NCBI GenBank assembly: GCA_964399775.1
Contig: CAYNSH010000001.1
Coordinates: forward strand, 56,370-120,369
Reading direction: 5' to 3'
Source: an uncultured Verrucomicrobiota bacterium
Lineage (GTDB): Bacteria; Verrucomicrobiota; Kiritimatiellia; CAIQIC01; Lenti-01
Length of the DNA: 64,000 bases
Shown here piece after piece: positions 11,042 to 39,941 of this stretch. The stretch's first letter is position 1, and every line of letters begins with the position of its first letter. A model generated the notes under the pieces. The model had not been told where the DNA came from. It made no database searches and saw only the letters and a list, made by a program, of their open reading frames with translations. A program made the translations under genes and the position numbers.

Positions 11042-12305
<1,264 letters not shown>

Positions 12306-12309
<4 letters not shown>

Positions 12310-13922: not shown

Positions 13923-14010
13923 GCAACTAGTCTAACCGACTGGTCTGTTATTTGCAAGGGGCTTCTTCCTGTGGGTAAACCGATGCTTTTGTTGATGTAA
14001 TTATTTGTCT

Positions 14011-20545: not shown

Positions 20546-21532
20546 TCAGCGGGGGCGGGGTTTTGGAAGCAGGCGCTTGAGGGCGACGTAGAGCCGGACG
20601 CCGGCGGGAACGCCGGCGAGGCGCGACAGCGCGCGGAGAATCCGGTTGGGTTCTCGGGGGCGGAAGCCGGACACCAGCTCCCGGCAATGAGCCCATGCGC
20701 GGGCCCATTCGGCGGGATCGTGGCGTGCGAGTACCTGGGCGTCGCGGTAGAAGTATTGCGCGAGGCGCCGCCGCCGTTCGGGCGTCAGCGCATCCTGCGC
20801 GCGCAATCCGTTTTCGACCATTCGGAGCAGTTGCTGGCGTGCGCGGGTGGAGCGCAGGACGACGTCGCCGCCGCGCGTGATGCGCCGGCCGGCGTGGTGG
20901 TTGTAGATGCACGAGGGCCGGTCGAGCGAATGGAACCGCGCGCCGGCCAGGCCAACGGTCAGCGCCCAGCCCCAGTCCTGCGCCTTGGTCCAGGCGGGAT
21001 CCCAGCGCAGCGGGCGGATGAAATCGGCCCGATACAGCGCGGCGTGCACGCACGGTGCAATGCCCAGCAGCATGTCGTCGATGCCGCCGGACAGGTCCGG
21101 CGCGGGACGAAGACGCCGCCGCGTTTCGTCTTCCATGCCATCCGCGCCGAACGTGCGCTCCTCCCATCCGGTCAGCAGGGCGTCGCAGCCAGAGGCGCGC
21201 GCGGCTTCTACTTCTTTCGCCAAGGCGCCAGGCAACAGCTCGTCATCGGAATCCAAAAACTTGACGAATGCCCCGCGCGCCAGCGCGAGGCCGGCATTGC
21301 GCGCGACGCAGGCGCCCTGGTTGTCCTGCCGGACCAGCCGGATGTCGCGGTCGAGCCGGTCGGGGAATTCGCGCGCGAGCGCGGCGCGGAGGTCGTCGGT
21401 GGAGCCGTCGTCCACCACGACGATTTCCACTGCGCCCGTTTGTTCGAGGCACGAGCGCACGGCGCGGCACAGCTCCGCCGGCCGGTTGAAAACCGGAATC
21501 ACCACGCTAACGTCGGGGCGTTCCGGGCTCAT
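20546..21532 (-). CDS. Family 2 glycosyltransferase.
   Basis: VSVVIPVFNRPAELCRAVRSCLEQT…VVVDDGSTDD. The start is at MSPERPD (codon 47 of ORF 20546..21670), which overlaps the stop of the upstream minus-strand gene in an ATGA. Confidence 0.7.
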   Translation of the reverse strand: MSPERPDVSVVIPVFNRPAELCRAVRSCLEQTGAVEIVVVDDGSTDDLRAALAREFPDRLDRDIRLVRQDNQGACVARNAGLALARGAFVKFLDSDDELLPGALAKEVEAARASGCDALLTGWEERTFGADGMEDETRRRLRPAPDLSGGIDDMLLGIAPCVHAALYRADFIRPLRWDPAWTKAQDWGWALTVGLAGARFHSLDRPSCIYNHHAGRRITRGGDVVLRSTRARQQLLRMVENGLRAQDALTPERRRRLAQYFYRDAQVLARHDPAEWARAWAHCRELVSGFRPREPNRILRALSRLAGVPAGVRLYVALKRLLPKPRPR

Positions 21533-22734
21533 GCGGAAGCCTCCGACAGGAACGTCTCCATGCGCCGCAGATATGGGAGGAAGCGCTCGCGGAACACGTC
21601 CGCATAGGCATACTCCGGGCGCCCGAGCTGGTAGTGGCCTAGGTTCAGGCCGACGAGCAGGAACAGCCATTCGGCGGCGCGTCGGATGTCCGGGTGGGCT
21701 TCCGGGCCATGGAAGCGGGCGATGGAGGTGGCGATGACGGCGGCAAGATCGCCGTCATGGAGCGCCAGCACCGACTCCAGGGCGTTGAAGAGGAAGTAGG
21801 CGAGGTCGTAGCTGAGGAACCCCATGCCGCCGCCGGCGTAGTCCAGCAGCACCAGCTCCCCGTCCTGCACCAGCAGGTTCTGGAGGCTGAAATCGCTGTG
21901 GTTGAAGCCTTCCGGCAGCGCCGCCAGCCGGGTTCGCACGCGGTCTTCATGGGCCGCCAGCCAGCCGAATACATGGCGGAACCGCGCCTGGTCCTCCGGT
22001 GGCAGTCCGTCTGGAATGTCGTCGGGGCGGATGGCAAACACGCTGGTGACCCGATCGCGCCGCCGCGCCACCCGCAGGGTCGAGAGCGTGCGGGCGAGGT
22101 CCACGACGGCATGAAATTCGTCCAGGGTCTTCAAGGGCGGGTGTCCGCCGGAAATGTACGGGTAGGCCGCGGCGGTGAATCCGCCGATGGGGCCGGTCCA
22201 CAGCAGCGCGGGCACGCGGATGCCGCGCTCATCGAGTTGGCGGCGGATGTCCGGGTTTTCTTCCAGATGTACGCAGACTTTCAGAAAGATGGTGGCGTCG
22301 TCGGCGTGGGTGCGCGCGATGGTCATTTTGTCCAGAAACAGGCTGGCCAGTCCGCGGTAGGGCAAGATGTCGTGGGTGAACCGCGTGGCGTCGGCGAAGC
22401 CGATGGCCTGGCACAAGCCCCGCAGGGCCACGGCGTGTGCATCGAGAAATCCGGTGGCGAGGATGGCGATGAAATCGCGGTAGGCGTCTTCGGGCAGATG
22501 GCTGCTCTTGGCGAGGTGGAAGAGGAAGCGCAGTTCGCCGGGGCGGAACCGGCCGGCCGGGTGGGCGGCGGTGGCGCGGCGCAGCGCCTCGGGGTCGCGC
22601 TCCAGCAGCGCGCGCAGCACGGCGGCGCGTCCGGCGAACAGCAGCGCGGGCGGCACCAGCCGGGACAGCAGCGGATGCGCATGGATTTTCCGGCGCAAGC
22701 GAAGTCCAAGAGCCTGGGGCAAGAGCGGGGTCAT
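21529..22734 (-). CDS. APH-like (aminoglycoside/choline-kinase fold) phosphotransferase.
   Basis: The C-terminal 401 aa of the long ORF 21529..24912. Brenner motif HSDFSLQNLLVQDGELVLLDYAGGG. Start MTPLLPQ overlaps the GT4 stop. Confidence 0.6.
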   Translation of the reverse strand: MTPLLPQALGLRLRRKIHAHPLLSRLVPPALLFAGRAAVLRALLERDPEALRRATAAHPAGRFRPGELRFLFHLAKSSHLPEDAYRDFIAILATGFLDAHAVALRGLCQAIGFADATRFTHDILPYRGLASLFLDKMTIARTHADDATIFLKVCVHLEENPDIRRQLDERGIRVPALLWTGPIGGFTAAAYPYISGGHPPLKTLDEFHAVVDLARTLSTLRVARRRDRVTSVFAIRPDDIPDGLPPEDQARFRHVFGWLAAHEDRVRTRLAALPEGFNHSDFSLQNLLVQDGELVLLDYAGGGMGFLSYDLAYFLFNALESVLALHDGDLAAVIATSIARFHGPEAHPDIRRAAEWLFLLVGLNLGHYQLGRPEYAYADVFRERFLPYLRRMETFLSEASA

Positions 22735-23861
22735 GGCCGGAGATCCGTCCGGAGGCTTTCGTAGAGGGCGGCGATGGCGCGGGCAACATCGGGCCAGCCG
22801 TGTGTTTGGCGGCGGGCGGCCAGCCGCGCGATCCGGGCCTGGTACTCTTCCGGCGCGGACTCGATCAGGCGTCGGGCCTGTCGCAGCGCTTCCTGCAGGC
22901 CGGCAACGGTGGGTTCGAAATAGAGAGCGGTGTCGCCCAGCACTTCCCGGGCATAGGGGGTGTCGGTGGTGAGTTGCGGCTTGAGAAATGTCTCGGACGT
23001 GTGCGGGCCGCCGCTGGTCAGTTGTTCGGGGTCCGGCGCGTAGAGCAGGAAATCGGCGGCGCGGACCGTGCGCGACAATCCGGCCTGGTCGAGGCGGCCC
23101 AGGAAGCGGACTCGGGGGCCGCCCCGCGCGGCAAGGGGGTTGAGTTCGGACGGGGAGCCACCCCCCACCACCAGCAGGCGGCAGTCGGAATTCGGCAATC
23201 CGGCGACGGCATCCACCAGCAACTCCAGGTTTTTTCGCGGTCCAATCGTGCCCACGGTCAGCAGCACCAGGCCGGCCGGGGGCAGGTCTAGATCGCGGCG
23301 GGCGGCGGCCGGGGTCAGGTCGGCCGGGGCTTCGTCGGGAAAGACGCCGAAGGGGATCACGGCGTGGCGGCAGCCGGGGCGGAAGGCATAGGCGGCCTGG
23401 GCCTGCGCTTCGCCCCAGCGGGAATGGTGGATGGCTCCATCCGCCCGCTCGGCCACCGCGCGGTACAACTGGTCGGCGGCGGCGAGTTCCTCCCCGGCGG
23501 CGCCGTGGGGCCGCAGGTTGTGCAGCGTCCAGACCAGGCGGATGCCGGCGGAGCGGATGTGCTCCAGCGCGCCGGTGGTTTCCCGGAGCCACCGCTCCCG
23601 TTCGCCGGTGCGGCCGGCAGCCAGCAACCGGATGCGCCGGACCAGCCGTGGGAAAAGCCCGTGCACGGCCTGGCGGCACCAGGCTTCGGGCCAGTGCAGA
23701 TGCACCACGTCGGGTTGGGCCGCCAAAACTCCAGGCAGCGCGTCGGGCAGGTAGGTGCCCCAGCCCCAGTCCCGCGGATCGACCGCGACGCCCGTCTCCC
23801 GCAATGCGCGGATCAGGGACTGCTGATACCAATGGGTGTTGGGGAGGTGGACGATCTTCAT
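22731..23861 (-). CDS. Family 4 glycosyltransferase.
   Basis: MKIVHLPNTHWYQQSLIRALRETG…FLLYAPDPEQ. Start at codon 14 of ORF 22731..23900. Confidence 0.65.
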   Translation of the reverse strand: MKIVHLPNTHWYQQSLIRALRETGVAVDPRDWGWGTYLPDALPGVLAAQPDVVHLHWPEAWCRQAVHGLFPRLVRRIRLLAAGRTGERERWLRETTGALEHIRSAGIRLVWTLHNLRPHGAAGEELAAADQLYRAVAERADGAIHHSRWGEAQAQAAYAFRPGCRHAVIPFGVFPDEAPADLTPAAARRDLDLPPAGLVLLTVGTIGPRKNLELLVDAVAGLPNSDCRLLVVGGGSPSELNPLAARGGPRVRFLGRLDQAGLSRTVRAADFLLYAPDPEQLTSGGPHTSETFLKPQLTTDTPYAREVLGDTALYFEPTVAGLQEALRQARRLIESAPEEYQARIARLAARRQTHGWPDVARAIAALYESLRTDLRP

Positions 23862-24006
23862 TCCACACCGAAGTCTGGCACATGGAGGGGGGCGAAACAA
23901 TTCGTTTGTGCAACGGGGTGTTTCCTGGGCGAAAGGAACTTGAATTGGCCTGCCCAGCCGCTACATTCAGGGACAACCGGATCCGCGGCGCGGAGAAAGG
24001 TCGGCG

Positions 24007-24789
24007 ATGAAGGGTGTCGGGTTTTTGCGGAACGTGTGGAAGGAACTGCCCCATTTGAACCTGGGGTCTTCGCTGCGCTACGTGCGGATGATGGCCGGGC
24101 GGGGCGGGGAGACCGTCCGCCTCCATCCCCGGCACCATCCCGGTCTCTCCTTCGATATCCGCGCTGCTGGCTCGGACCGCTGGACGTTTCGCGAAATCTT
24201 CGTGCACGAAGTCTATCGCGAGGTGGTGGAGCAGGTCGGGCACGCCCGGCGCTTCGTGGACCTGGGCGCGAATATCGGATTGGCCAGCCTCTATTTTCTG
24301 GAAAGATTCCCGGAGGCGCAGGGGCTCGCGGTCGAAGCCAATCCCGCCACCTTCGCCATGCTGGAGCGCAACCTGGCCGGCGAATGCGCCAAGGGCCGCG
24401 CCTGCCTGTTCCTGGGCGCCGCGTGGTCCCGGGATGGTGCGGTGGCGGGCGATGACGGCGGATCGCCGGACGGATTCAGCCGCTTCAGCGTGCGATCCGT
24501 TCCGGCGACGACGGCGGGCGGGGCCGGGCTCATCCCCGCGCGGCGCGTGGAAACCCTGCTGGATGCACAAGGCTGGGACCGGGTGGATTTGATCAAGATC
24601 GACATCGAAGGCGCCGAAGTCGAACTGTTCCGGGGCGGGGCGGATTGGCTGGAGCGTACGCACTGCGTGGCGATGGAATTCCACGACGATTCCGCCCGCC
24701 AGTGCGACTGGCCCGCCGTGCTGGCCCGCCACGGCATGCGGGAGATCAAAACGGGGGATCCCCACACCGCAATCGGAATCCGGGGCTGA
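24007..24789 (+). CDS. FkbM-family methyltransferase.
   Basis: FVDLGANIGLASLYF and …VDLIKIDIEGAEVELF are the FkbM signatures. Confidence 0.75.
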   Translation: MKGVGFLRNVWKELPHLNLGSSLRYVRMMAGRGGETVRLHPRHHPGLSFDIRAAGSDRWTFREIFVHEVYREVVEQVGHARRFVDLGANIGLASLYFLERFPEAQGLAVEANPATFAMLERNLAGECAKGRACLFLGAAWSRDGAVAGDDGGSPDGFSRFSVRSVPATTAGGAGLIPARRVETLLDAQGWDRVDLIKIDIEGAEVELFRGGADWLERTHCVAMEFHDDSARQCDWPAVLARHGMREIKTGDPHTAIGIRG

Positions 24790-24792
24790 ACC

Positions 24793-26268
24793 ATGGCCGG
24801 GTTCGAGATCAAGTGTGCGGATTGGCCGGGGCAGTTTTGCCTGTGCCGCGATTCGCGCGACGTGTCCTCCGACTGGCCGGTTCTCCGCTTGGCCGGATGG
24901 GTCTTGCGGCATTGTCCCACCTTGCCGGTAGCCCCCTTGGCCGATGCCGGCGGCCAGCCGGTTGGCTGGTTGCTAGGCTATCCAATCTCGCCGGAAGGCC
25001 GGTTGATCGAGAACGCCTGCGCGCTGGAGACCCAGGCGACAGACGCGAATTTCGCCGCCTCCGCCGAAGCTTGGATCGCGCGGTTGGCCGGCCGCTATGC
25101 GGCGATTCTCCTGGCACCATCATGTGCGCGTGTCTACACCGATCCGGGCGCGCAGCGCCCCGTCGTGTACCATGCGGCCGAACAGATCGTGGCGTCGTCC
25201 GTCTGCCTGGCCGCCCCGGACCCGGATTGGGATGAAAAGTTGATGGGAATTGTGGACGTGGTGCGGCGGGATGGCTGGTATCCGTTCGGCCTGTCGCCGG
25301 ATCGCCGGGTCCGGCGCCTGCTTCCCAACCACCGCCTGGACCTGGACGATTTCAGCGCGGCCCGCTTTTGGCCCGGCCCGCAGGACGTGGATTTCGGATG
25401 CGCCCGGGACATCCGCGAGTGCATTTCACGCATCGCGGCCAAGGCGGAAGCCAACATCGCGGCGGTGGCGGCGTGCCATCCAATCGACATGGCGCTCACC
25501 GGGGGGCGGGACTCCCGGATCCTGCTGGCTCTCTCGAAACGCCATTTGTCCCGCATCGACTTTTTTACAATCGGACTGCCCGATGCGTCGGGCGCGCGCG
25601 ATGGCCGCATCGCCACCGAACTGGCCCGGCGGTTCGGGCTCCGCCATCGGATACTGGAGTGGCGGGAGTCGTCGCGGGAGGTCCTGGACGTTTGGCAGAA
25701 GAGGGTGGGGTTGAGTTGTGCCGGCCGGACATGGAAATCGGCGACCACCCTGGTCCAACTGGATCCCACCCGGGCCGTGGCGTACGGATTTTTCGTCGAG
25801 GTGGGGCGCTGCCAGGGTTGGCGGGAGTCCGATTTTTCCGCCGGGCCCCTCGCGCCGGAGGAATTGCTGGAGCGGCAGAAGCTGCCCATCCAGGGGCGGC
25901 TGGTGGCGGAGGCGGCCCGGTGGCTGGCCGGCCTGCCTCTGGCCAGCCGGCTCGATGTTCTCAGCCTGGCCCACATCGAGTTAAAAATGGGCTGCTGGTC
26001 CGGTGTCGGCTTCGATGGCAATACGGGCCGGATCGTGATTCCGTTTTGCGACCGGGAAATCTTCCGCCGGATGCTTCAACTTCCGCCCCGCTACCGGTTC
26101 GAGCAGCGGATGACCCTCGATCTGATCCGGAGCCGCTGGCCCGCCCTGTTGCGGCTGCCGTTCAACCGCGAGCCTGGCTGGCGCAACGCCGTGGCGGAAT
26201 GGCTGGCCCAGCAGGCGCGTGAACATCCCCGGGCGGCCCGAACAGCCCGATTTTTGCTCCGGCGGTAA
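24793..26268 (+). CDS. Asparagine-synthetase-B-like PP-loop protein lacking an N-terminal glutaminase Cys (amidotransferase-like).
   Basis: ALTGGRDSRILLAL resembles the AsnB SGGLDSS PP-loop. No N-terminal MCG motif. Confidence 0.45.
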   Translation: MAGFEIKCADWPGQFCLCRDSRDVSSDWPVLRLAGWVLRHCPTLPVAPLADAGGQPVGWLLGYPISPEGRLIENACALETQATDANFAASAEAWIARLAGRYAAILLAPSCARVYTDPGAQRPVVYHAAEQIVASSVCLAAPDPDWDEKLMGIVDVVRRDGWYPFGLSPDRRVRRLLPNHRLDLDDFSAARFWPGPQDVDFGCARDIRECISRIAAKAEANIAAVAACHPIDMALTGGRDSRILLALSKRHLSRIDFFTIGLPDASGARDGRIATELARRFGLRHRILEWRESSREVLDVWQKRVGLSCAGRTWKSATTLVQLDPTRAVAYGFFVEVGRCQGWRESDFSAGPLAPEELLERQKLPIQGRLVAEAARWLAGLPLASRLDVLSLAHIELKMGCWSGVGFDGNTGRIVIPFCDREIFRRMLQLPPRYRFEQRMTLDLIRSRWPALLRLPFNREPGWRNAVAEWLAQQAREHPRAARTARFLLRR

Positions 26269-26296
26269 AGCGTCTCGGAGTCATGAGGAGGTCGGA

Positions 26297-27424
26297 ATGA
26301 GTGTTGCGGTTCGCTGGAGGACAGGGTTGGCCCGCCTGTCCTTGATGGGGCTGGCCCTAATGGCATCCCTGTTGCTGGCCGAAGGCATTGTGCGTGTGGT
26401 CGCCCCGCAACCGCTGAGCGGCTCCTGGCGCGTGGCGACTCCCTCCGGCCTGCTGGTCAACAAATCATCCGGTACGGCGCGGCATCAAGGCGGCGGGCGA
26501 ACGGTCCGGTACCGCTTTCATGAGCCCCATGTGCGGGATACGCCTTGGGTGCCGTCCGCGCGGCGGATTCTGCTCCTCGGCGATTCCTTCGCCTTTGGAT
26601 GGCTCCTGCATAAGGAAGAAACCATGGCCTGGCATCTGCAGCAACATGCGGATGCCGCCGTTGGAAAGGGGCAACTTCACTTCCTCAACGCGGCCGCCGG
26701 CGGGTGGGGTACGGCCCACTGCCTGGCGTTCCTGCAGGAGATCGGCGACCGGATTCAGCCGCATGCGGTCGTGGTCATTCTCAACACGGATGACATCGGG
26801 CGCAGCATTCGCAGCGGACTGTATGCGCGGAAGGACGGGGATCCGCCGCATTTGATCCGCCAAGCCGTCGGCCGCAGCCGGAAAAAGGAGCTGCTCAATG
26901 AGTGGCCCGGCTACCAATATCTCTTGGAGCATTCCCACCTGCTGCAGCTTGTCCGGCGCTATGAGGTGGCCAGGAGGCCGTCCGGCCGATCCGGAGGGCG
27001 CACGAGTGCGCCGTCAGCGGATCCATCCGTTCCGGATATTCCGATCCCGTCCTCCCAAGACATGGATGTGGCCGGCACAGAGGCCCAACGCTGGGGACGA
27101 GCGCTGTTTCGGGAAATCCAGCGCTGGTGCGCCGAACGGAATGTGGCCTTGTATGTCGCCACAACGGGGCGTCATGGCGCCATGCCCTCTACCCGGAACG
27201 AGGAACCCACCCATGCCTTCATGCGGCAGGCGTCCGCCATTTTTGCCGAAACGGGCATTCCGTTCCAGGACATCTCCCCGGACTTCCTGGCAATTCCCGA
27301 GCCGGATCGTGCGGCCCATTCGATTCCCGGCGATGGCCATCCTTCCCCGCTGGGCAGTCGCTTCATCGCCGAGCGAATCTGGACGACGCTTCTGAAAGAT
27401 CGATTGCTGGCGGATGGGATATAG
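26297..27424 (+). CDS. Membrane-anchored SGNH/GDSL hydrolase (putative polysaccharide O-acyl esterase/transferase).
   Basis: N-terminal TM helix. RILLLGDSFAFGW (block I) and GDGHPSP (block V). GAGGAGG lies upstream of the ATG at codon 27. Confidence 0.65.
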   Translation: MSVAVRWRTGLARLSLMGLALMASLLLAEGIVRVVAPQPLSGSWRVATPSGLLVNKSSGTARHQGGGRTVRYRFHEPHVRDTPWVPSARRILLLGDSFAFGWLLHKEETMAWHLQQHADAAVGKGQLHFLNAAAGGWGTAHCLAFLQEIGDRIQPHAVVVILNTDDIGRSIRSGLYARKDGDPPHLIRQAVGRSRKKELLNEWPGYQYLLEHSHLLQLVRRYEVARRPSGRSGGRTSAPSADPSVPDIPIPSSQDMDVAGTEAQRWGRALFREIQRWCAERNVALYVATTGRHGAMPSTRNEEPTHAFMRQASAIFAETGIPFQDISPDFLAIPEPDRAAHSIPGDGHPSPLGSRFIAERIWTTLLKDRLLADGI

Positions 27425-27476
27425 CCGCCCCGGCACGAATGGAAAGATGCAGGACACTGGCCACGAATGCCGGGAA

Positions 27477-28466
27477 ATGGTAGAAAACAAGCCAATTCCC
27501 ATGCAAACCTTCCAACAGCCTGAACGGGGAGATTCTTGCGTCGGCGTGGTCATTCCCACCTATCGGCGCGGCGCGGTGCTGCTGGAGACGCTGACGCATC
27601 TTCTTGAACTGGTTCCGCCGCCGGACGAAATCGTGGTGGTCGACCAAACCGAGGTCCATCCCCCCGATGTGGAAGAGACCTTGCAGGAGTGGGAGCGGGG
27701 GGGGCAGTTGCGGCGGTTGCGGATTTCGCCGCCCTCGATCCCGTGCGCGATGAATGCCGGCCTGCTGCAGGCCCGCGGTGGGATTGTCCTGTTTTTGGAC
27801 GACGATCTTGTGCCGGAGCCGGGGCTGATCGCGCACCACCGGCAAGCGCATGCGGAGCATCCCGACGCCTGGGCGGTCGTGGGCCAGGTGCTGCAGCCCG
27901 GAGAGGAGCCTTCCGCGTCGCCCCCGAGCCGCAAGGGGGGCAGCGCGCTCCGGCGCGATCTGGATTTTGCGTTCAATGGCATCGAACCGGCATGGGTGGA
28001 GAACGTCATGGCCGGCAATCTATCGGTCAAGCGCAGCCAGGCTTTGGCCGTTGGCGGATTCGATGAAAACTTCATCCCGCCGGTGTCGTTCCGATTTGAA
28101 ACCGAGTTTGCCCGGCGGCTGGTGGCCGCCGGCGGAAAAATCTGGTTCGAGCCGCAGGCGGCCATCCGCCATCTGCGTGCGGGCAGCGGCGGGACCCGCG
28201 CACGGGGAGGCCACATGGCCAGCGCTTCGCCCCTGCACGGCGTCGGCGACACCTACTATGCCCTGCGGCGCGGTCGCGGCTGGGACAGACTTTGGCATAT
28301 TCTCAAGCGGCCATTCCGCGAGGTCTGCACGAAATACCACCTGCGGCGTCCATGGTGGATTCCGGTCAAGTTCATCGGCGAACTCCGGGCGCTGGTGCTG
28401 GCGATCCGTCTGCATCGGGCAGGACCAAAGCTCCTAACCACGAAGGATGCGAGCGCGCACGAGTAG
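27477..28466 (+). CDS. Family 2 glycosyltransferase.
   Basis: CVGVVIPTYRRGAVLLETL…VVVDQTE…DDD. Start choice is uncertain: ATG 27447, 27477 and 27501 are all possible. Confidence 0.6.
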   Translation: MVENKPIPMQTFQQPERGDSCVGVVIPTYRRGAVLLETLTHLLELVPPPDEIVVVDQTEVHPPDVEETLQEWERGGQLRRLRISPPSIPCAMNAGLLQARGGIVLFLDDDLVPEPGLIAHHRQAHAEHPDAWAVVGQVLQPGEEPSASPPSRKGGSALRRDLDFAFNGIEPAWVENVMAGNLSVKRSQALAVGGFDENFIPPVSFRFETEFARRLVAAGGKIWFEPQAAIRHLRAGSGGTRARGGHMASASPLHGVGDTYYALRRGRGWDRLWHILKRPFREVCTKYHLRRPWWIPVKFIGELRALVLAIRLHRAGPKLLTTKDASAHE

Positions 28467-28633
28467 AAAACCATGACGATCCGGGGACCTGGCAACCACG
28501 AATGGCACGAATGAACACGAATAGAGAACGGATCCGGGGTTTTACCATTCGTGTAGATTCGAGTGATTCGTGGTTGGCTGTCTTGATAGAAATCCAGTAA
28601 CCACGAATAGCACGAATGAACACGAATAGGAGG
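28466..28633. repeat. Left copy of a ~170-bp repeat flanking the GxxExxY gene. It consists of CACGAAT(A/G)-type heptamer arms in inverted orientation around GAGAACGGATCCGGGGTTTTA.
   Basis: About 95% identical to 29046-29215. The internal inverted repeat AACCACGAAT…/…ATTCGTGGTT is seen directly. Confidence 0.8.
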
Positions 28634-28641
28634 GCATCAAA

Positions 28642-29019
28642 ATGACCGAACTCATCTACAAGGAGGAAGCCTATCAAATTGTCGGAGCCGCAATGGACGT
28701 ATACAACACGATGGGAAACGGGTTTGTTGAGCCGGTTTATCAAGAATGCGTGGAAATCGAACTTGGCCTGCGTGGAATTTCTTTTGAACAGCAGGTTCCC
28801 ATCCCGCTCGACTACAAGAGTCGTCGGCTGAAACAACAATATATTCCGGATTTGACCTGCTTTGGCAGTATCATTGTCGAGCTCAAGGCGGTCAAATCCA
28901 TCGTGGATGAGCATCGCGCCCAGCTTCTTAATTATTTGAAGGCGACCGGGCTGCACCTCGGCATGCTGGTGAACTTTGGGGCCTATCCCAAGCTGGAATG
29001 GGAGCGCATGGTACTTTGA
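28642..29019 (+). CDS. GxxExxY-family protein (small PD-(D/E)xK-like).
   Basis: MTELIYKEEAYQIVGAAMDVYNTMGNGFVEPVYQE…LLNYLKATGLHLGMLVNF matches the family. AGGAGGG lies upstream. Confidence 0.75.
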   Translation: MTELIYKEEAYQIVGAAMDVYNTMGNGFVEPVYQECVEIELGLRGISFEQQVPIPLDYKSRRLKQQYIPDLTCFGSIIVELKAVKSIVDEHRAQLLNYLKATGLHLGMLVNFGAYPKLEWERMVL

Positions 29020-29045
29020 GGCATACCCACGAATGGTTAGAGATA

Positions 29046-29255
29046 GAAAACCATGACGATCCGGAGACTTGGCAACCACGAATAGCACGAATGAACAAGA
29101 ATAGAGAACGGATCCGGGGTTTTACCATTCGTGTAGATTCGAGTGATTCGTGGTTGGCTGTCTTGATAGAAATCCAGTAACCACGAATAGCACGAATGAA
29201 CACGAATAGAGAACGGGTCGGAAGCTTAACATTCGTGTATATTCGAGTTATTCGT
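29046..29255. repeat. Right copy of the flanking repeat, with one extra degenerate unit.
   Basis: A direct repeat of 28466-28633. The GTG that opens ORF 29254 lies inside it. Confidence 0.8.
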
Positions 29256-29274
29256 GGTTAAATCAATCCCAGTG

Positions 29275-30399
29275 ATGCGAATTATCCTGTTGAACACGGC
29301 GCCTCCGGATCGGCCGGACGGCAGCATGGTCCGGTATGGCCGCATGGTCCGCGAGGCCTTGGAACGCCATGGCGGCGGGGCGTTCCAGGTGGAGGAAATC
29401 AACCTGGCTCCGGCGCAGGCTTGGTTGTCGCGGTTTCCGGCGCGCGTACAGACCCCCATCCGCTATGCCCGGATTGCGCTGGCCGCGAGGCGGCTGCTGC
29501 GCCGGGAGCACAACGCGATCCTTCACCTGCTGGATGGCAGCCACGCCTATCTGCTGGGTGTCGTTCGCCGTCTCCGCTCGCCGCTGGTGGTGACGGTCCA
29601 TGATCTAATCCCCCTCCTGCGGTTGCGCGGCGAGCTGGGCGATTTCCGGCCCGGGTGCATCGGCGGCTGGCTGGTCCGGCGCGCGGCGGACAACCTGGCG
29701 CGGGCGGATGCGGTGGCGGCAGTCAGCGCCAATACGCGCGCAGACGTGATTCGCCTGGCCGGCCTACCGCCGGAGCGCGTGCATGTCGTCCCCCATGCGA
29801 TGGACCTGGAGGCCGCCGTGCCGGCGCCGGGTCCACCCGCGTCGCCGCCCTATCTGCTCCACGTGGCGGGCAACAACACCTTCTATAAAAACCGGCAGGG
29901 CGTGGTGGAAGTGTTCAAACAGGTCCGGCGGTCCGAACCCGTGCGGCTCGTTCTGGCCGGTGCGCCGCCGGATGCCGCGCTTTCAGCGAAGGTGGCGGCC
30001 TCGGGCCTGGCATCGGAAATCGAATTTCGCCCCCACGTGACGGAGGCGGAATTGGCGTCGCTCTACCGGAATGCGGCGCTGTTGCTGTTCCCCAGCTTGT
30101 ACGAAGGCTTTGGTTGGCCGCCGCTGGAGGCGATGCTTCAGGGCTGCCCCGTGGTCTGCTCCGACGCCGGCTCGCTGCCCGAAGTCGTGGGCTCCGCCGC
30201 CTTGACCGCCCCGCCCGGCGACATCGCGGCCCTGGCCGGCCATGCGGTCCGGCTGTTGCGCGATCCCGGCCTGCGCCAGCGCCTGGCCGAAGAAGGCCTG
30301 CGGCATGTGCGGACTTTTACCTCCGAAGCGCTCGCATCCCGGCTCTGCGCGGTCTATCATCTGGCGGCTCAGGTGTTTTCAGGAAAAGGTCAGACGTGA
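29275..30399 (+). CDS. Family 4 glycosyltransferase.
   Basis: MRIILLNTAPP…LLLFPSLYEGFGWPPLEAMLQGCPVVCSDAGSLPEVV. Confidence 0.75.
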   Translation: MRIILLNTAPPDRPDGSMVRYGRMVREALERHGGGAFQVEEINLAPAQAWLSRFPARVQTPIRYARIALAARRLLRREHNAILHLLDGSHAYLLGVVRRLRSPLVVTVHDLIPLLRLRGELGDFRPGCIGGWLVRRAADNLARADAVAAVSANTRADVIRLAGLPPERVHVVPHAMDLEAAVPAPGPPASPPYLLHVAGNNTFYKNRQGVVEVFKQVRRSEPVRLVLAGAPPDAALSAKVAASGLASEIEFRPHVTEAELASLYRNAALLLFPSLYEGFGWPPLEAMLQGCPVVCSDAGSLPEVVGSAALTAPPGDIAALAGHAVRLLRDPGLRQRLAEEGLRHVRTFTSEALASRLCAVYHLAAQVFSGKGQT

Positions 30400-30401
30400 G
30401 C

Positions 30402-31835
30402 ATGGGGCAGATCAACGACATGCCGCTGGGGCCGGGCTTGCTCCACATGCCGCCGGGGCTTGGCGAGAATGCCCCGGGGACCATCCTGCCCATCGGGCCG
30501 CTGATGCGGCGGCTGGCCGAACGCCTCGATGCGGATGGGATCTTATGGGCCGTCCTTCGCCAGGCAGACGGATTGCCGGAGCATACCCGCTATGACGTGG
30601 ACTTGCTCGTCCGGCCACGCGACCGGGATGCGGCCATCCGGATCCTGACGGAGTGCGGCGCGGAAACTGGCTGGCGCATCGCGGGGAGAATCCACAAGGC
30701 GTTCTATGAGTGCCTGCTGCTGGTGCGCGGGTCGGCGGATGGGGATGGCGTCTTTTTCCCCATCGACCTGTTCACCGCGCTGGAGCATCGCGGATTGCGG
30801 TATCTCGACGTGGAGGAGGCCCTGCGCGGACGGGTGCGGCTGGCCAACGGCTTCTGGACGTTGCCGCCGGGCATGCAGGCGGCGGTCACCCTCTTGAAGG
30901 AACTCCTGCCCCATGCCAAGCTGAAGGAGAATTCGCGCGCACCGGTGCAGCGGCAGGCGGCGGCAGATCCCGAAGGATTCCGGCAGGCCCTCGAATCCGC
31001 CGCCGGTCCGGATGAAGCGGCGCGGTTGGTCGAGACCGTCCGGCAGGGAGCGTGGACATGGTCGAAGGTGGAGGAGGACCGCTTGCGCGCCGCCATACGC
31101 CGGCGTTCACCCGGCTGGCGCTTGGGATTGCTGCGGTCGGCGTGGGCCAACTGCCGGCACCTGTTGCGACCCGCCGCGGGCCGCGTCATTTGCCTGGCGG
31201 GCGCGGACGGCTCGGGCAAGACCACGCTGGCGCGCGGATTGTTTGCGCACCTGTACAAGCAGCCGTTCAAGGCCTGCCGCTATCTCCACGGCAACGCCGT
31301 CGTCCTGCCGCGATTCCGCGACCTGCGCGCCGGTTTGCGCCGTCTCGTCGGCCGGCCGGGTCCCACAGCCGTTGCGGAGTCCTTCGATCCGCCGCTGAAA
31401 GGGATGATGGTGCCGGTGGCCGCATGGAAATCCATCGCCCTGGCGTTCTACTATGCCGTGGATTGGATGCTGGCCCGCCCGCTCCTGCGCCGCTGGCGCG
31501 GGCAGTGGACGCTGGTGATCCTCGACCGCTCGTTCTACGATTTTTATTTTCAACTCGGCCATCGGCGCTGCCCGCGGGGCGTGTTGAATCTCCTGTCGCA
31601 CTTGGTGCCCAAACCGGATCTCTTGCTGTGCATCGAGGGCGATCCGCCGCAGATCCACGCCCGCAAGCCGGAATTGACGGTCGAGGAAATCCGCATCGAG
31701 CAGGAAATCCTGCGGGAATTGGCCAGTCGCCTGCCGTTTGCCTGCCGTCTGGATGCCTCGGGCGGCATCGAGGCCATGGTCGCGACGGCCCGTGCGCTGG
31801 TGTGGAAGGAACTGCTGGGGGAGGGAGAGCCATGA
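30402..31835 (+). CDS. Two-domain protein: an N-terminal pol-beta-superfamily nucleotidyltransferase-like domain plus a C-terminal P-loop kinase-like (dNMP/thymidylate-kinase-like) domain.
   Basis: The N-terminus has RYDVDLLVRPRD (DxD). The C-terminus has LAGADGSGKTTLARGL…ILDRSFYD. Start at codon 97 of ORF 30114, preceded by GGAAAAGG. Confidence 0.5.
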   Translation: MGQINDMPLGPGLLHMPPGLGENAPGTILPIGPLMRRLAERLDADGILWAVLRQADGLPEHTRYDVDLLVRPRDRDAAIRILTECGAETGWRIAGRIHKAFYECLLLVRGSADGDGVFFPIDLFTALEHRGLRYLDVEEALRGRVRLANGFWTLPPGMQAAVTLLKELLPHAKLKENSRAPVQRQAAADPEGFRQALESAAGPDEAARLVETVRQGAWTWSKVEEDRLRAAIRRRSPGWRLGLLRSAWANCRHLLRPAAGRVICLAGADGSGKTTLARGLFAHLYKQPFKACRYLHGNAVVLPRFRDLRAGLRRLVGRPGPTAVAESFDPPLKGMMVPVAAWKSIALAFYYAVDWMLARPLLRRWRGQWTLVILDRSFYDFYFQLGHRRCPRGVLNLLSHLVPKPDLLLCIEGDPPQIHARKPELTVEEIRIEQEILRELASRLPFACRLDASGGIEAMVATARALVWKELLGEGEP

Positions 31836-32737
31836 CGTCCCCGGCCGGCACGAAGCTGTGTTGCTGGAACCGGGGTTCCCGCCCCCTGCTGGCCTATGCG
31901 GCGGGCCCGCCTGCGCAACGCCTGCGCGCCGTGGACCTGTTTCCGCGCGGGTCGTTTCAGCGGCGCGCGGCCCATGCGGGCATCCGCCTGCTGGCGCGGC
32001 TCGGACTGGATGCCCGGGGAGAGATCGCGGATCTGCCGGCGGACGGCCTGCTGTCCATGGCGGATCTCTCCGACCTGCTGGACGAGTTGAGGCAGGGCGG
32101 CGCCACGCCCGCCGAGTGGCTGGTCACGTGGCCGGCCCGGCCGGAGCGCCGACGCCTGTATCTGGTGTTCCGCGATGCCGCCACGGGCCGCATCGGCGTG
32201 GTCAAGATCGGCGCTGGCGAATTCAATCGCGCCCAGTTCGGCAATGAAACCGCATTTCTCCGGCAGCTCGACGGCGGCCGCCATCCCTTTGCCATTCCTT
32301 CCGTGCTCTTCATGCGGGAACTGGACGATGGACGCTCGATCCTCGCGCTTGGCGGGTTTCCCTCGCGTCTCCGTCCGACCTCGCGCTTCCGGGCCGCCCG
32401 CTGGAGCGCGCAGGCGATCGGCCATCTTCAGTCGATGGGCCCGACGGGAATCGCGCATGGCGACCTCGGGCCGGGCAACATGCTCGTGGACGACAACGGT
32501 GGCTTGTTCCTCTTCGATTGGGAAAATGCCTCGGCGACCGCGCCGCCGCGAGTGGATGAAGTGGGTTTCTGGCTCTCCCTGCGACAAGCGCGCGCGTTGC
32601 GCCATCCGCGCCATCTGGCGGCGGAGATGCGCCGGCATTTCCATTCCGTGCCGGACCAAGATTTGCTCGCCGCGCTGGAGTTCCTTCGCGCGCGCGACAA
32701 CCTGGCCGCGGCGAAAATCCTGGAGGCGTGGCGATGA
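31832..32737 (+). CDS. APH-like phosphotransferase (small-molecule kinase fold).
   Basis: IAHGDLGPGNMLVDDNGGLFLFDWENA. ATGA overlap with the upstream gene. Confidence 0.6.
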   Translation: MTSPAGTKLCCWNRGSRPLLAYAAGPPAQRLRAVDLFPRGSFQRRAAHAGIRLLARLGLDARGEIADLPADGLLSMADLSDLLDELRQGGATPAEWLVTWPARPERRRLYLVFRDAATGRIGVVKIGAGEFNRAQFGNETAFLRQLDGGRHPFAIPSVLFMRELDDGRSILALGGFPSRLRPTSRFRAARWSAQAIGHLQSMGPTGIAHGDLGPGNMLVDDNGGLFLFDWENASATAPPRVDEVGFWLSLRQARALRHPRHLAAEMRRHFHSVPDQDLLAALEFLRARDNLAAAKILEAWR

Positions 32738-33936
32738 AGTACAAGCTCGCCATCGTCGAAACGCACCCCATCCAATACAAGGCTCCCTTGTTTCGGAAGT
32801 TGGCGGCGCATCCGCTGATCAAGCCGACGGTCTTGTACGCGATGATTCCCGATGCCGCGCAGCAGGGTTCCGGCTTCGGTGTGGCCTTTTCGTGGGACAT
32901 CCCCCTGCTGGATGGATATCCCTACCATGTGCTGGAGAACCGGGCGAAGAATCCCGCGCCCAACCGGTTCGGCGGGTGCGACACCCCGGGGTTGCATGCC
33001 TGGCTCAAGGAGAACCGCCCCGATGCCGTGCTGGTCAATGGCTGGGTGGTGAAGACCTGCCTGCAGGCGCTGTGGGCCTGCAAGCGCCTGGGCATCCCGT
33101 GCCTGGTTCGCGGCGAAGCCAATCTGCTGCGCCCTCGCGCGGTCTGGAAGTACGCGTTCCACCGGCTGCTGCTGCACCGCTATGACGCCTTTCTGGCAAT
33201 TGGGTCCGCCAACCACGAGTTCTACCGGGTCCACGGTTGCCGCGAGGATCGGATCTTCTTTGCCCCCTATGCGGTGGACAACGACTTCTTCGCCGCGCAG
33301 GCGGCGGAACGGGCCGGGCGTCGGCAAGCCTTGCGCGCGTCCTTCGGCATTTCTCCGGCCTCCGCGGTGTTTCTGTTCGCCGGAAAACTGGTGGCCAAAA
33401 AGCGCCCGGCGGATCTGCTGGAGGCGATTGCGCGCCTACCGGGGGATGTGCGCGGCCGGGCCCATGCGTTGATCGCCGGCGACGGCCCCCTGCGCGGGGA
33501 GTGCGAGCGCGTTGCACGCGCACACGGGTTGGCGACTACATTCGCCGGATTCCTGAACCAGTCGCAGTTGCCCGACGCCTATGCGGCGGCCGACGTCCTG
33601 GTGCTGCCCTCGGATGCCGGCGAAACGTGGGGGCTGGTGGTGAACGAAGCCATGGCGTCGGGGCGTCCCGCCGTCGTGTCCCGTGCGACCGGCGGCTGTG
33701 CCGACCTCATCGTGGAGGGCGAAACCGGGCACGCCTTCGCCTTGGGCGATGTTCAAGAGCTTGCCGGGATCTTTGCGGGGTATGGGGCCGATCTGGACCA
33801 GGCCGCCCGGCAGGGGAGGGCTGCCGCCCGGCACATTCAATCGTTCTGTCATGAAGGGATCATCGATGGCATACTGGACGCCATGCATCGTGTTGTTCCA
33901 GGACCGCAGGAATCGCCGGAACGTTCATCATGCTGA
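32734..33936 (+). CDS. Family 4 glycosyltransferase.
   Basis: …VLVLPSDAGETWGLVVNEAMASGRPAVVSRATGGCADLIVEGETG. ATGA overlap. Confidence 0.75.
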   Translation: MKYKLAIVETHPIQYKAPLFRKLAAHPLIKPTVLYAMIPDAAQQGSGFGVAFSWDIPLLDGYPYHVLENRAKNPAPNRFGGCDTPGLHAWLKENRPDAVLVNGWVVKTCLQALWACKRLGIPCLVRGEANLLRPRAVWKYAFHRLLLHRYDAFLAIGSANHEFYRVHGCREDRIFFAPYAVDNDFFAAQAAERAGRRQALRASFGISPASAVFLFAGKLVAKKRPADLLEAIARLPGDVRGRAHALIAGDGPLRGECERVARAHGLATTFAGFLNQSQLPDAYAAADVLVLPSDAGETWGLVVNEAMASGRPAVVSRATGGCADLIVEGETGHAFALGDVQELAGIFAGYGADLDQAARQGRAAARHIQSFCHEGIIDGILDAMHRVVPGPQESPERSSC

Positions 33937-35902: not shown

Positions 35903-35905
35903 ACG

Positions 35906-39842: not shown

Positions 39843-39941
39843 TACCACGGCTCACCCGGAGGGTTCGCCCTACCCAAGACGTCGAGAGGGTTTGGGGTAG
39901 GGCGAGGCATCCCTGCCGAGCCGGTCTCCAAGATTCCGCCC

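Follow-up and report, generated by a model that had tools for sequence, protein, structure and literature searches.

Putative phosphate-linked tailoring of a surface polysaccharide by a recurrent nucleotidyltransferase-kinase set and a candidate chain terminator in an uncultured Verrucomicrobiota bacterium

Analysis of a 64,000-nucleotide stretch of DNA from an uncultured Verrucomicrobiota bacterium (hereafter the window) suggests that its glycosyltransferase block carries two separate units of surface-polysaccharide tailoring enzymes, one putatively for phosphate-linked decoration (FUS, APH2 and NT5) and the other a candidate terminator formed by APH1 and an FkbM-family methyltransferase, a reading to which we give an even chance. 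For the FUS/APH2 set, attachment of a phosphate-linked decoration to the glycan is the most likely role, ahead of sugar salvage; of the two roles originally proposed, decoration by a phospho-substituent is the better supported. The folds, conserved catalytic residues, fusion and conserved gene neighbourhoods were all observed here, and the predicted inventory of three kinases and two pol-beta/NTP_transf_5-type domains was upheld. The features are listed in Table 1.

Table 1 Position and assignment of the features discussed, in window coordinates
Feature	Position	Strand	Assignment
APH1	21529-22734	-	Divergent member of the APH kinase family, extended N-terminally by 150 aa; within a minus-strand GT4-APH1-GT2 operon
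FUS	30402-31835	+	Two domains: NTP_transf_5-type N-half and dTMP-kinase-fold P-loop C-half
FUS N-terminal domain, aa 1-253	30402..31160	+	Putative remote NTP_transf_5-type (pol-beta-like) nucleotidyltransferase domain, then helical bundle
FUS C-terminal domain, aa 254-477	31161..31835	+	dTMP-kinase-fold P-loop kinase
APH2	31832-32737	+	Minimal kinase of the APH family, protein-kinase-like; third domain of the FUS family, here split off
NT5	42044-43120	-	NTP_transf_5 (PF14907) protein, 3' edge of the glycosyltransferase block
FkbM-family methyltransferase	24007..24789	+	Pfam Methyltransf_21, E 2.5e-11; candidate APH1 partner
Wzt	11038..12309 (start approximate)	+	ABC exporter ATPase of the O-antigen type; carbohydrate-binding domain at the C-terminus
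GT4 glycosyltransferase	29254..30399	+	Pfam; directly 5' of FUS
Conserved block 3' of APH2	32728..41099	+	Pfam; seven genes
SPASM radical-SAM fragment	9-443		5' edge of window
HprK-related kinase	within 427-1662		TIGR04352 and ScmC matches E 1e-10, both far under cut-off

A GC3 frame plot gave coding support for all four genes (APH1, FUS, APH2 and NT5). FUS is coupled to APH2 by an ATGA overlap and the flanking GT4 genes are joined to these kinase genes by overlaps of 4-10 bp, an operon structure with which the assigned start sites fit. That the genes belong to a polysaccharide locus was borne out by Pfam analysis of the window, which placed them among at least 13 glycosyltransferase genes with Wza, Wzc, Wzy_C and Wzm/Wzt genes adjoining. 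The block 3' of APH2 encodes, in order, a GT4, a 465-aa polytopic membrane protein, a hexapeptide acyltransferase, a GT2, a GT4, a 635-aa Glycos_transf_4 priming transferase and a further GT4. As judged from their sequences, the four genes look catalytically intact; the catalytic residues are present and conserved, so the possibility that the kinases are dead enzymes falls away.

FUS had been described as a nucleotidyltransferase-like domain fused to a P-loop kinase, and both parts of this description stood, the P-loop part as a dTMP-kinase fold by Foldseek and the N-terminal part by hhalign rather than Pfam. Against Pfam, the full-length protein gave nothing above threshold, with sub-threshold P-loop and Thymidylate_kin matches only. 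In the AlphaFold model (pLDDT 90) the C-terminal half resembles dTMP kinases (Foldseek E 1e-6, TMt about 0.70), which account for all of the top 50 PDB matches for FUS, and 25 of 27 family members gave a Thymidylate_kin match (best E 1.6e-7); FUS scores under the dTMP kinase equivalog cut-offs. Conserved positions in this domain include the Walker A motif GADGSGKT, a DRS motif (D375, R376) and K422/E424, and a basic insertion (aa 297-340) is specific to the FUS family. The usual acceptor of dTMP-kinase-fold enzymes is a phosphate (NMP to NDP) and not the hydroxyl of a sugar. The N-terminal half reached only 12 bits against Pfam NTP_transf_5, and so was undetected there, and no match was obtained in structure libraries. 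Profile-profile comparison by hhalign with a diverse alignment aligned it to NTP_transf_5 over 167 columns (probability 91.7%, E 7.7e-7) with the catalytic Asp residues of the two in register. The residues of its Asp triad (D65, D67, D122) are unchanged in 60-61 of 61 homologues from different phyla, and its modelled topology runs helix, strand, loop, strand (DVDLLV), helix and three strands (D122). By profile comparison, then, the N-terminal half of FUS is a remote NTP_transf_5 homologue.

The call of two APH-fold kinases proved sound, both proteins exceeding the curated cut-off of Pfam APH (PF01636, 23.2 bits), APH1 with 39.3 bits and APH2 with 30.8 bits. Invariant positions in the APH2 family are K125, E139, H209-G-D211...N216 and D229. 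Around 20 of 49 FUS homologues are single chains of 755-833 aa that join FUS to an APH2-like C-terminus, a single-protein state in many relatives that had been missed in the original prediction. Such chains indicate that FUS and APH2 are two halves of one three-domain enzyme set, with a predicted NTP_transf_5-like nucleotidyltransferase, a dTMP-kinase-fold P-loop kinase and an APH-type kinase. The separate protein predicted to be NTP_transf_5-like, NT5, matched PF14907 with 97.4 bits (cut-off 31.2) and has K94-G-P, D113, D115, H215 and H219 as invariant positions.

FUS was found in 53 species-level genomes, and in about 24 of 33 full-length FUS loci, from at least eight phyla, an APH2-family ORF lay within 10 kb, directly adjoining or fused in at least 10 of them. 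In every case these were glycosyltransferase-rich polysaccharide loci; across many bacterial phyla, the FUS/APH2 enzyme set is met repeatedly in loci for surface polysaccharides. Lentisphaerae and Kiritimatiellia contigs were syntenic, with the order GT4-FUS-APH-GT4-membrane protein-acyltransferase-GT2-GT4-priming GT-GT4-(X)-NTP_transf_5. This synteny and the recurrence of the kinase pairing across phyla argue that the arrangement is not due to chance. Among individual loci, gene order 3' of APH2 is kept in L004/L005, L012 and L013, the GT4-FUS adjacency in L004, L007, L012 and L013, and the NT5 orthologues of L004/L005 and L013 lie at the same end of the block; a fused homologue of 28% identity (P0047) likewise lies between two GT4 genes. 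NTP_transf_5 is also present in FUS loci L019, L024, L056 and L063, the last with the order Wzx-GT2-Wzy_C-GT2-FUS-APH-GT4-GT4-NTP_transf_5-priming GT. The two occur together in Nitrospirota and Halioglobus loci, and NTP_transf_5 joins in several phyla.

The substrates, the order of the steps and the product we infer as follows. FUS, APH2 and NT5 would work in the cytoplasm on the lipid-linked repeat unit, after one of the flanking GT4 steps and before the other. One kinase domain would place a phosphate on a sugar hydroxyl, and the second kinase would modify a second site or extend the phosphate; with a nucleotide-activated donor, FUS-N and NT5 would then link a group to this phosphate, giving a phosphodiester-linked side group. 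APH1 and the neighbouring FkbM methyltransferase would form a candidate stand-alone kinase/methyltransferase chain terminator that leaves a (methyl)phosphate cap at the non-reducing end; the carbohydrate-binding domain at the C-terminus of Wzt would read this cap before export.

A possible but less probable alternative is donor synthesis on a soluble substrate, in which FUS and APH2 would turn a free sugar or small alcohol X into X-phosphate and then NDP-X, the dTMP-kinase-fold domain would recycle NMP or be the X kinase itself, and a LicD-like NT5 would transfer phospho-X to the glycan; the polymer would still be decorated, or a building block salvaged, but the kinases would never act on glycan. 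Models for this are LicA/LicC, AmgK/MurU, NadR and Bacteroides Fkp, a nucleotidyltransferase-kinase fusion. Such a fusion is the classical activation architecture (NadR, Fkp), and the NadR ribosylnicotinamide-kinase domain is among the profile matches (E 0.0017). Moreover, small-molecule kinases dominate the APH family, LicA, other choline kinases and APH enzymes are the best PDB profile matches, and a Pfam scan of the window genes recognized no NDP-sugar synthesis genes of the locus's own. However, MurU and LicC are sugar-phosphate nucleotidylyltransferases of the PF00483/PF12804 type, whereas FUS and NT5 match neither family, both being of the NTP_transf_5 type, and we know of no sugar-1-phosphate or alcohol-phosphate nucleotidylyltransferase of pol-beta/NTP_transf_5 fold. 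The earlier analogy with NahK/AmgK-MurU and LicA-LicC is therefore not supported in the form given; NDP-sugar salvage of the NahK/AmgK-MurU kind was likewise not supported. Similarity to NahK/AmgK was not significant, with no match among the best profile hits of APH1 or APH2, and the proposed likeness to LicA or choline kinases survived at the family level but, for APH2, in the catalytic loop only (4R77, E 8e-5, 46 residues). No system that could import an exogenous substrate is encoded nearby, and FUS/APH2 is wedged between and translationally coupled to GT4 genes in distant phyla, as is more usual for the steps of an assembly line. Beside PEP mutase in a phosphonate cluster, a recurrent 'thymidylate kinase + PF14907' pairing has been reported (10.1101/2021.04.07.438883); it adds to the recurrence of such pairs seen here, and it also fits small-molecule activation.

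It is highly improbable that the APH-type proteins are regulatory or protein kinases targeting proteins such as glycosyltransferases or Wzc-like regulators, with FUS as an NTP-binding regulator. The APH2 model (pLDDT 92) finds its top Foldseek matches in Ser/Thr kinases of the eukaryotic type, GAK and AAK1 among them (E about 1e-5), and phmmer gave weak matches to protein kinases, but these are generic kinase-fold matches (TM 0.3-0.38) that cover the nucleotide-binding core alone; the kinase folds do not tell glycan, small-molecule and protein substrates apart. With only 72 residues after the DFG-equivalent Asp, APH2 lacks the activation-segment and GHI substrate-binding subdomain of protein kinases, Pfam places APH1 and APH2 in APH and not Pkinase, and the fusion or adjacency with a nucleotidyltransferase/dTMP-kinase-fold protein in glycosyltransferase operons across phyla speaks for a metabolic module. 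That these enzymes modify the ribosomal peptide system found at the window's 5' edge, in the way that lasso peptides are phosphorylated or glycosylated, has hardly any probability in our view. An HprK-related kinase is encoded there, and kinases of the HprK type do act together with 'uncharacterised nucleotidyltransferases' on lasso peptides (PMC8498205; PMC6993621), but FUS and NT5 are 28-40 kb away from the peptide genes and keep their place inside the glycosyltransferase block in relatives, and lasso protease and RRE domains were not found among the genes scanned. The suggested functional link to the peptide system found no synteny support, an HprK-like ORF occurring within 10 kb in 0 of 67 related loci fetched.

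APH1 had not previously been set apart as a lineage tied to Wzt and methyltransferases. Only three full-length relatives, all distant, were found among 1.84 billion representatives, and K152, H279, D281, N286 and D298 are invariant between APH1 and relatives of 18-24% identity; by this sequence comparison it is a separate, nearly orphan lineage. Two of the three relatives run into the start of a Wzt gene, to which they are translationally coupled, and adjoin methyltransferases (order methyltransferase-APH-Wzt). In one of these loci, L011, an FkbM methyltransferase lies directly 5' of the APH1 homologue, similar to that of the window at the family level only; the latter is divergently transcribed from the APH1 operon. 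The window Wzt has Pfam ABC_tran and Wzt_C domains (E 2.4e-13), resembles the Aquifex Wzt structures 8DKU and 7K2T (E 6e-64) and shares 40% identity with the L011 Wzt from end to end. Its putative cap-reading C-terminal domain had also escaped the original prediction. The Wzt proteins coupled to APH1 relatives are extended at the C-terminus, and one of them gave a weak Wzt_C match. The Lentisphaerae locus that is syntenic with the window encodes a Wzt_C-bearing Wzt but no APH1. We consider it improbable that APH1 is an unrelated small-molecule kinase (for example, for antibiotic resistance or a metabolite) and a chance member of the locus that terminates no chain. Its top PDB profile match is the spectinomycin phosphotransferase APH(9) (E 1.4e-5), with choline kinases and AmiN also among the best (LicA, 4R77, E 3.5e-3), the family is extremely rare, and APH1 has neither coiled coil nor fused methyltransferase; against this stand the position of all four known members in glycosyltransferase-rich loci, the two that overlap a wzt start codon with methyltransferases on their flanks, and the translational coupling of the window gene to GT4 and GT2 genes.

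Among known systems, NadR and Fkp likewise combine nucleotidyltransferase and kinase in one polypeptide, the NadR kinase being a P-loop domain, but their nucleotidyltransferase domains are Rossmann/GT-A-like rather than of the pol-beta/NTP_transf_5 type and they act on free metabolites. WaaP/WaaY and KdkA are protein-kinase-like enzymes that phosphorylate sugars of a lipid-linked oligosaccharide at the cytoplasmic face and are similarly encoded among GT4-type glycosyltransferase genes; they differ in their Pfam family (Kdo/WaaP) and have no associated nucleotidyltransferase or P-loop kinase domains. LicA/LicC/LicD resembles the proposed pathway in that its kinase is of the APH family, that it has a nucleotidyl activation step and that a phospho-substituent is passed on to a surface glycan, the last by LicD, a pol-beta-like enzyme. 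Here, however, neither a LicC-type (PF12804) nucleotidyltransferase nor the LicB permease is present, no LicD (PF04991) match was found, and there is an extra dTMP-kinase-fold domain.

The best biochemical analogy to FUS, APH2 and NT5, though not a physical link, remains PsmK/PsmN, in which the P-loop kinase PsmK makes a phosphate on which PsmN, whose DxD motif is essential, is needed to place a hexose (PMC6993621; PMC11912497). This logic was shown genetically, with no in-vitro activity of PsmN on record. FUS would hold both domain kinds in one chain, and NT5 would be a second copy of the nucleotidyltransferase type, PsmN being described as an 'uncharacterised nucleotidyltransferase'. The differences are a peptide Ser as substrate versus the glycan proposed here, an HPr-kinase-type PsmK versus the dTMP-kinase fold of FUS-C, the third, APH-type kinase, and a window with no lasso genes.

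For APH1, the precedent is the methylphosphate terminators made by sequence-unrelated methyltransferase-kinase pairs in ABC-transporter-dependent O antigens, WbdD (Escherichia coli O9a/Klebsiella O3) and ORF6-N (Klebsiella O7), one kinase being AmiN/APH-like (PMC3482155; PMC11231755). APH1 differs in standing alone, with neither the fused methyltransferase nor the coiled-coil ruler typical of known terminators, in lying 9 kb from wzt and in showing no significant sequence similarity to WbdD, which is absent from its best 60 PDB profile matches (and reached only E 0.12 with the APH2 profile). In the known systems a protein-kinase/APH-like kinase and a methyltransferase cap the glycan and the C-terminal domain of Wzt reads the cap; APH1 relatives are coupled to wzt and methyltransferases, and APH1, like the O7 kinase, is AmiN/APH-like.

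Gene boundaries were set from third-position GC and the frame plot, since the window is ~65% G+C and raw ORF lists are noisy as a result. By both measures the four genes named in the original prediction are coding at the positions predicted for them: the kinases APH1 and APH2, the two-domain protein FUS (FUS-N, aa 1-253; FUS-C, aa 254-477) and the NTP_transf_5 (PF14907) protein NT5. They are surrounded by a single large surface-polysaccharide locus (~2.2 to 43.1 kb; Pfam and NCBIfam). FUS starts 3 bp past the stop of a GT4 gene, the FUS stop and APH2 start form an ATGA overlap and the APH2 stop overlaps the next GT4 gene by 10 bp, while APH1 lies in a minus-strand operon, GT4-APH1-GT2, with 4-bp overlaps. 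The locus begins with an EpsL-like outer-membrane protein, Wza and a Wzc tyrosine kinase, followed by a Wzy_C protein, Wzm and a Wzt with a Wzt_C carbohydrate-binding domain, a STELLO-type glycosyltransferase, a toxin-antitoxin pair and more than 12 GT2 and GT4 genes. It also encodes two methyltransferases (Methyltransf_24 and FkbM), an Asn-synthase-like protein, two GDSL proteins, a hexapeptide acyltransferase, a 465-aa polytopic membrane protein and a 635-aa Glycos_transf_4 priming transferase.

Features of the window, with positions, strand and basis or context
Feature	Position	Strand	Basis or context
SPASM-like fragment	9-443		5' edge
HprK-related kinase	within 427-1662		5' edge; longest ORF 427-1662
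61-aa ORF	440-625	+	between SPASM-like fragment and HprK-related kinase
Tandem heptamer arrays	742-868; 1670-1792		directly up- and downstream of the HprK-related kinase core
Wza/Wzc, Wzy_C ligase/polymerase-like protein, Wzm/Wzt with cap-reading domain	5652-12309		all in one locus
PIN toxin/Phd-YefM antitoxin pair	13315-13922	-	mid-locus, opposite strand, between STELLO-type and GT2 genes
~348-aa protein	15959-17005	+	between GT2 and Methyltransf_24 genes
APH1	21529-22734	-	frame plot, Pfam APH
FkbM methyltransferase	24007-24789		divergent neighbour of the APH1 operon
Asn-synthase-like protein	24793-26268	+	after FkbM gene; glutaminase domain not detected
PDDEXK_3 protein, 125 aa	28642-29019	+	the locus's only low-GC stretch (0.596)
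FUS	30402-31835	+	frame plot, AlphaFold model
APH2	31832-32737	+	frame plot, Pfam APH
465-aa polytopic membrane protein	33930-35327		no Pfam match
NT5	42044-43120	-	frame plot, Pfam NTP_transf_5

Wza/Wzc are typical of the Wzy-dependent route and Wzm/Wzt constitute the ABC route. Both sets occur here, the 465-aa protein is a second polytopic membrane protein and Pfam scans detected no Wzx flippase in the locus, which perhaps produces two glycans or follows a hybrid route. The ~348-aa protein gave weak GT1-like C-terminal matches only (E 0.005-0.02) and no significant Pfam domain. The PDDEXK_3 gene, two genes upstream of FUS, keeps that position in a related contig (coordinates L012, 7696-8073, and L001, 2905-3282). 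Several GT4 proteins (8-41 kb) matched the 'GT4-conflict' Pfam model more weakly than generic GT4 models, and APH1 matched TCAD9 weakly (E 0.0025, below cut-off); both kinds of match are more likely family cross-hits than signs of a defence system.

A functional link between the kinases and the peptide system at the 5' edge of the window had also been raised, and it found no support in synteny: the HprK-like gene lies 28-40 kb away, and no HprK-like ORF occurred within 10 kb in 67 related loci. The peptide system is cut off by the window edge; its HprK-related kinase matched TIGR04352 and ScmC (E 1e-10) but scored far short of the cut-off of either model, and neither a lasso B-protease nor RRE domains were found among the scanned window genes. 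The heptamer arrays flanking the kinase core (TTCAATA x5.7, TTCGACA x4.4, ATTCAAT x6, ATTCGAT x3.7) could be regulator-binding or phase-variable repeats, and since the longest ORF spans the upstream arrays, the kinase probably starts near 880-910. The 61-aa ORF has a coding-like GC3 of 0.77 and could encode either the precursor for this peptide system or a small partner protein.

Both APH1 (39.3 bits) and APH2 (30.8 bits) exceed the Pfam APH (PF01636) cut-off of 23.2 and are thus members of this family. The catalytic Lys, the HxDxxxxN loop and the Mg-binding Asp are kept family-wide in both, the invariant residues in the family alignments being K152, H279, D281, N286 and D298 in APH1 and K125, E139, H209, D211, N216 and D229 in APH2. 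The two kinases align with each other in the catalytic loop alone and are therefore not close paralogues.

FUS has no above-threshold Pfam domain, and its confident AlphaFold model (pLDDT 90.3, pTM 0.88) shows a dTMP-kinase fold for FUS-C: all 50 top Foldseek matches in the PDB were thymidylate kinases (E 1e-6, TMt ~0.70), and Thymidylate_kin weakly matched 25 of the 27 FUS family members. FUS-C conserves a Walker A motif (GADGSGKT), a DRS motif (D375, R376), LID-like K422/E424 and a basic insertion (aa 297-340). Its scores lie below the cut-offs for true dTMP kinases (PF02223, 20.4 vs 27 bits; TIGR00041, 18.9 vs 83), which rules out a true dTMP kinase equivalog.

FUS-N has no Pfam family of its own. 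In the model, helix-strand-loop-strand(DVDLLV)-helix-three strands lead into a helical bundle, with D65, D67 and D122, invariant in 60-61 of 61 homologues, on model strands 66-70 and 116-124. NT5 is a clear NTP_transf_5 member (97.4 bits, cut-off 31.2), with invariant K94-G-P, D113, D115, H215 and H219 and a nearly invariant E166; both proteins fit the pol-beta pattern of [DE]x[DE] on one strand and a third carboxylate on the neighbouring strand. FUS-N itself scored just 12 bits against NTP_transf_5, local hmmsearch found nothing beyond a 20-residue DxD motif, and hhalign with a shallow 27-sequence FUS alignment was negative (probability 1%, E 0.046). Significance was reached only once 34 diverse genomic homologues had been added to this set: with the resulting 61-sequence, many-phyla alignment, FUS 29-196 aligned with NT5 70-244 (probability 91.7%, E 7.7e-7), both acidic motifs in register. 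On this profile comparison FUS-N appears to be a remote relative of NTP_transf_5, and not a member by the Pfam threshold. The three kinases and the two nucleotidyltransferase domains of pol-beta type that were originally counted thus seem to be borne out by Pfam membership, the FUS-C fold match and, for FUS-N, hhalign.

Around 20 of 49 FUS homologues are 755-833 aa long, and their C-terminal 300 residues resemble full-length APH2 at 41-65% identity (28% in P0047, a distant fused homologue). The window therefore holds the split form of a three-domain protein, and FUS and APH2 together are one enzyme with NTP_transf_5-like, dTMP-kinase-fold and APH domains. The Lentisphaerae metagenome-assembled genome (MAG) GCA_012511885.1 contains the same locus, in the order Wzy_C-Wzm-Wzt(Wzt_C)-STELLO-five GT2-GT4-[fused FUS-APH]-GT4, then 477-aa membrane protein-small protein-GT2-GT4-632-aa priming transferase-GT4-480-aa protein-NTP_transf_5. 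The block is kept in two further contigs: in one of them FUS is immediately preceded by a SAM methyltransferase gene, and the other has split FUS and APH, with NTP_transf_5 on the opposite strand as in the window. In six cases a FUS homologue and an NT5 homologue have a longest contig of the same length, an indication that the two genes of the pair share a contig.

A scan of species-representative genomes placed FUS relatives at 53 loci. The hosts belong to Verrucomicrobiota (including the complete genome of Oceaniferula spumae), Lentisphaerae, Nitrospirota, Deltaproteobacteria, Acidobacteriota, Beta- and Gammaproteobacteria, Cyanobacteria, Micromonospora and Bacteroidota (including a Bacteroides ovatus MAG and Larkinella bovis). 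Using a profile built from the APH2 columns only and a 10-kb window, we found an APH2-family ORF in ~24 of 33 loci with full-length FUS, adjacent or fused in at least 10. NTP_transf_5 joins the two in four loci (L019, L024, L056 and L063), the last of which, from Ca. Sulfobium, reads Wzx-GT2-Wzy_C-GT2-FUS-APH-GT4-GT4-NTP_transf_5-priming transferase-ManC. In the Bacteroides ovatus MAG (L040) the order is GT2-acyltransferase-?-GT2-GT2-FUS-Caps_synth-GT4-APH-GT4. More distant FUS homologues (28-30% identity) also lie between GT4 genes and beside methyltransferases, and Wza/Wzc genes occur near FUS in nine loci. Since it is found across phyla and locus types, the FUS module is a general part of polysaccharide loci, untied to a single export route. 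In Micromonospora spp. (L035, L039, L041 and L043) the FUS profile covers positions 26-283 only, that is, the nucleotidyltransferase-like domain and the start of the P-loop domain, and an APH2-like ORF overlaps the matching region; these may be variants without the full dTMP-kinase-fold domain or artefacts of ORF calling at high GC.

Phosphate-linked decorations, including phosphocholine, glycerol or ribitol phosphate, sugar phosphates and methylphosphate caps, govern the charge, immune recognition, phage susceptibility and export of surface glycans, and to our knowledge few enzyme systems install them. Taking together the folds, the complete active sites, the natural fusion and the flanking glycosyltransferase genes, we propose that FUS-APH2 would act on a lipid-linked repeat unit: a kinase would phosphorylate a sugar hydroxyl, NTP_transf_5-type domains would put a residue on that phosphate from a nucleotide-activated donor, and the second kinase might serve a second site or extend the phosphate. 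The precedent is a lasso-peptide pair in which the P-loop kinase PsmK phosphorylates a C-terminal Ser and PsmN, an 'uncharacterised nucleotidyltransferase' with an essential DxD, is needed for the addition of one or two hexoses to the phosphate (PMC6993621; PMC8498205; PMC11912497). A 'thymidylate kinase + PF14907' pair also lies beside PEP mutase in a phosphonate cluster (10.1101/2021.04.07.438883), so that the partnership of P-loop kinase and NTP_transf_5 recurs outside the locus studied here; no other paper in the literature searched mentions PF14907, and none turned up on the combined gene set. It is conceivable, if rather unlikely, that FUS, APH2 and NTP_transf_5 represent an unrecognised, widespread machinery for phosphodiester-linked polysaccharide side groups, the NTP_transf_5 domain being a non-Leloir transferase that adds a sugar or other residue to a phosphate set on the lipid-linked glycan by the module's own kinases.

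The chief competing reading, plausible though less likely, is that the enzymes make an activated donor from a soluble substrate, by Lic-like or Fkp/NadR-like logic, which would yield the same kind of product. The profiles of both kinases matched the choline kinase LicA (4R77), over 46 catalytic-loop residues only for APH2 (E 8e-5) and ~160 residues for APH1 (E 3.5e-3), a similarity at the family level, and neither FUS nor NT5 matched the MurU/LicC-type families PF00483 and PF12804 even at E up to 1. Salvage of a sugar by NahK/AmgK with MurU, as originally suggested, is disfavoured: the nucleotidyltransferases are not of that type, and specific similarity to NahK/AmgK was lacking, neither enzyme being among the best 60 PDB profile matches of either kinase family and NCBIfam giving no match for APH1 or APH2. 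None of the four proteins gave an informative match in single-sequence phmmer searches of the PDB, and the Foldseek search with APH2 did not discriminate among substrate classes. That APH1 and APH2 are protein kinases is unlikely, given Foldseek TM values of only 0.3-0.38, the presence of just 72 residues past the DFG-equivalent Asp in APH2 and the Pfam assignment of both to APH. We also rejected, as a general function of FUS-APH2, a terminator read by Wzt; the FUS-APH2-NT5 trio occurs in a Wzx/Wzy locus without Wzt as well as in Wza/Wzc loci.

None of these folds is new, and kinases and pol-beta-like transferases that phospho-decorate glycans are a known type of system; what is new is the three-domain architecture, its wide but sparse distribution and the nearly orphan lineage of APH1. 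We know of no characterised member of this kinase/kinase/nucleotidyltransferase enzyme, whose polysaccharide loci range from those of Verrucomicrobiota to those of Bacteroides, cyanobacteria and Micromonospora. FUS, APH2 and NT5 are testable candidates for glycan-tailoring machinery, with a possible function for PF14907. Were transfer onto a glycan-borne phosphate correct, it would be the first glycan function of this 'uncharacterised nucleotidyltransferase' family and would unite it mechanistically with PsmN and the phosphonate-cluster pair.

APH1 may have a separate role. A word-indexed homologue search retrieved APH1 itself only, and exhaustive HMMER against 1.84 billion representatives gave three full-length relatives (19-24% identity), all catalytic residues being conserved. 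Two of their genomes share the order (Wzm)-GT2-methyltransferase-APH1 homologue-Wzt-methyltransferase-glycosyltransferases, the kinase stop overlapping the Wzt start, and the third relative is followed by GT2 and GT4 genes; in L011, one of these loci, the APH1 homologue is immediately preceded by an FkbM methyltransferase gene. The adjacent Wzt proteins are 414-425 aa long and hence carry a C-terminal extension, one with a weak full-length Wzt_C match. The window Wzt is 40% identical to that of L011 over its whole length and matched Aquifex O-antigen transporter structures at E 6e-64. In locus L010 a full GATase+Asn_synthase gene (13198-15039) lies two genes downstream of the APH1 homologue, past Wzt and a methyltransferase; the kinase, methyltransferase and amidotransferase may form a recurrent set.

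In Escherichia coli O9a the kinase and methyltransferase of WbdD make a methylphosphate cap that is read by the Wzt C-terminal domain (PMC3482155), and Klebsiella O7 uses a second, sequence-unrelated methyltransferase-kinase pair (PMC11231755). Given these precedents, Wzt_C and the Wzt/methyltransferase context of its relatives, it is plausible that APH1 and FkbM form a third, fully split format of O-antigen terminator. Against this, a syntenic Lentisphaerae locus holds the same Wzt without APH1, and the FkbM proteins of the window and L011 are only distantly related. WbdD is a fused kinase and methyltransferase with a coiled-coil ruler, whereas neither APH1 nor APH2 is fused to a methyltransferase and APH1 has no coiled coil, the latter a further point against such a role. 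WbdD matched the APH2 profile at E 0.12, was absent from the best 60 matches of the APH1 profile and ranked 28 (TM 0.37) in the APH2 Foldseek search. Linkage to wzm/wzt of the WbdD type is seen in the APH1 relatives that overlap the wzt start but is loose in the window, where the 9 kb between APH1 and wzt counts against the terminator. The APH1 family profile matches APH(9), choline kinases and AmiN, the APH-family enzyme that the O7 kinase resembles (PMC11231755).
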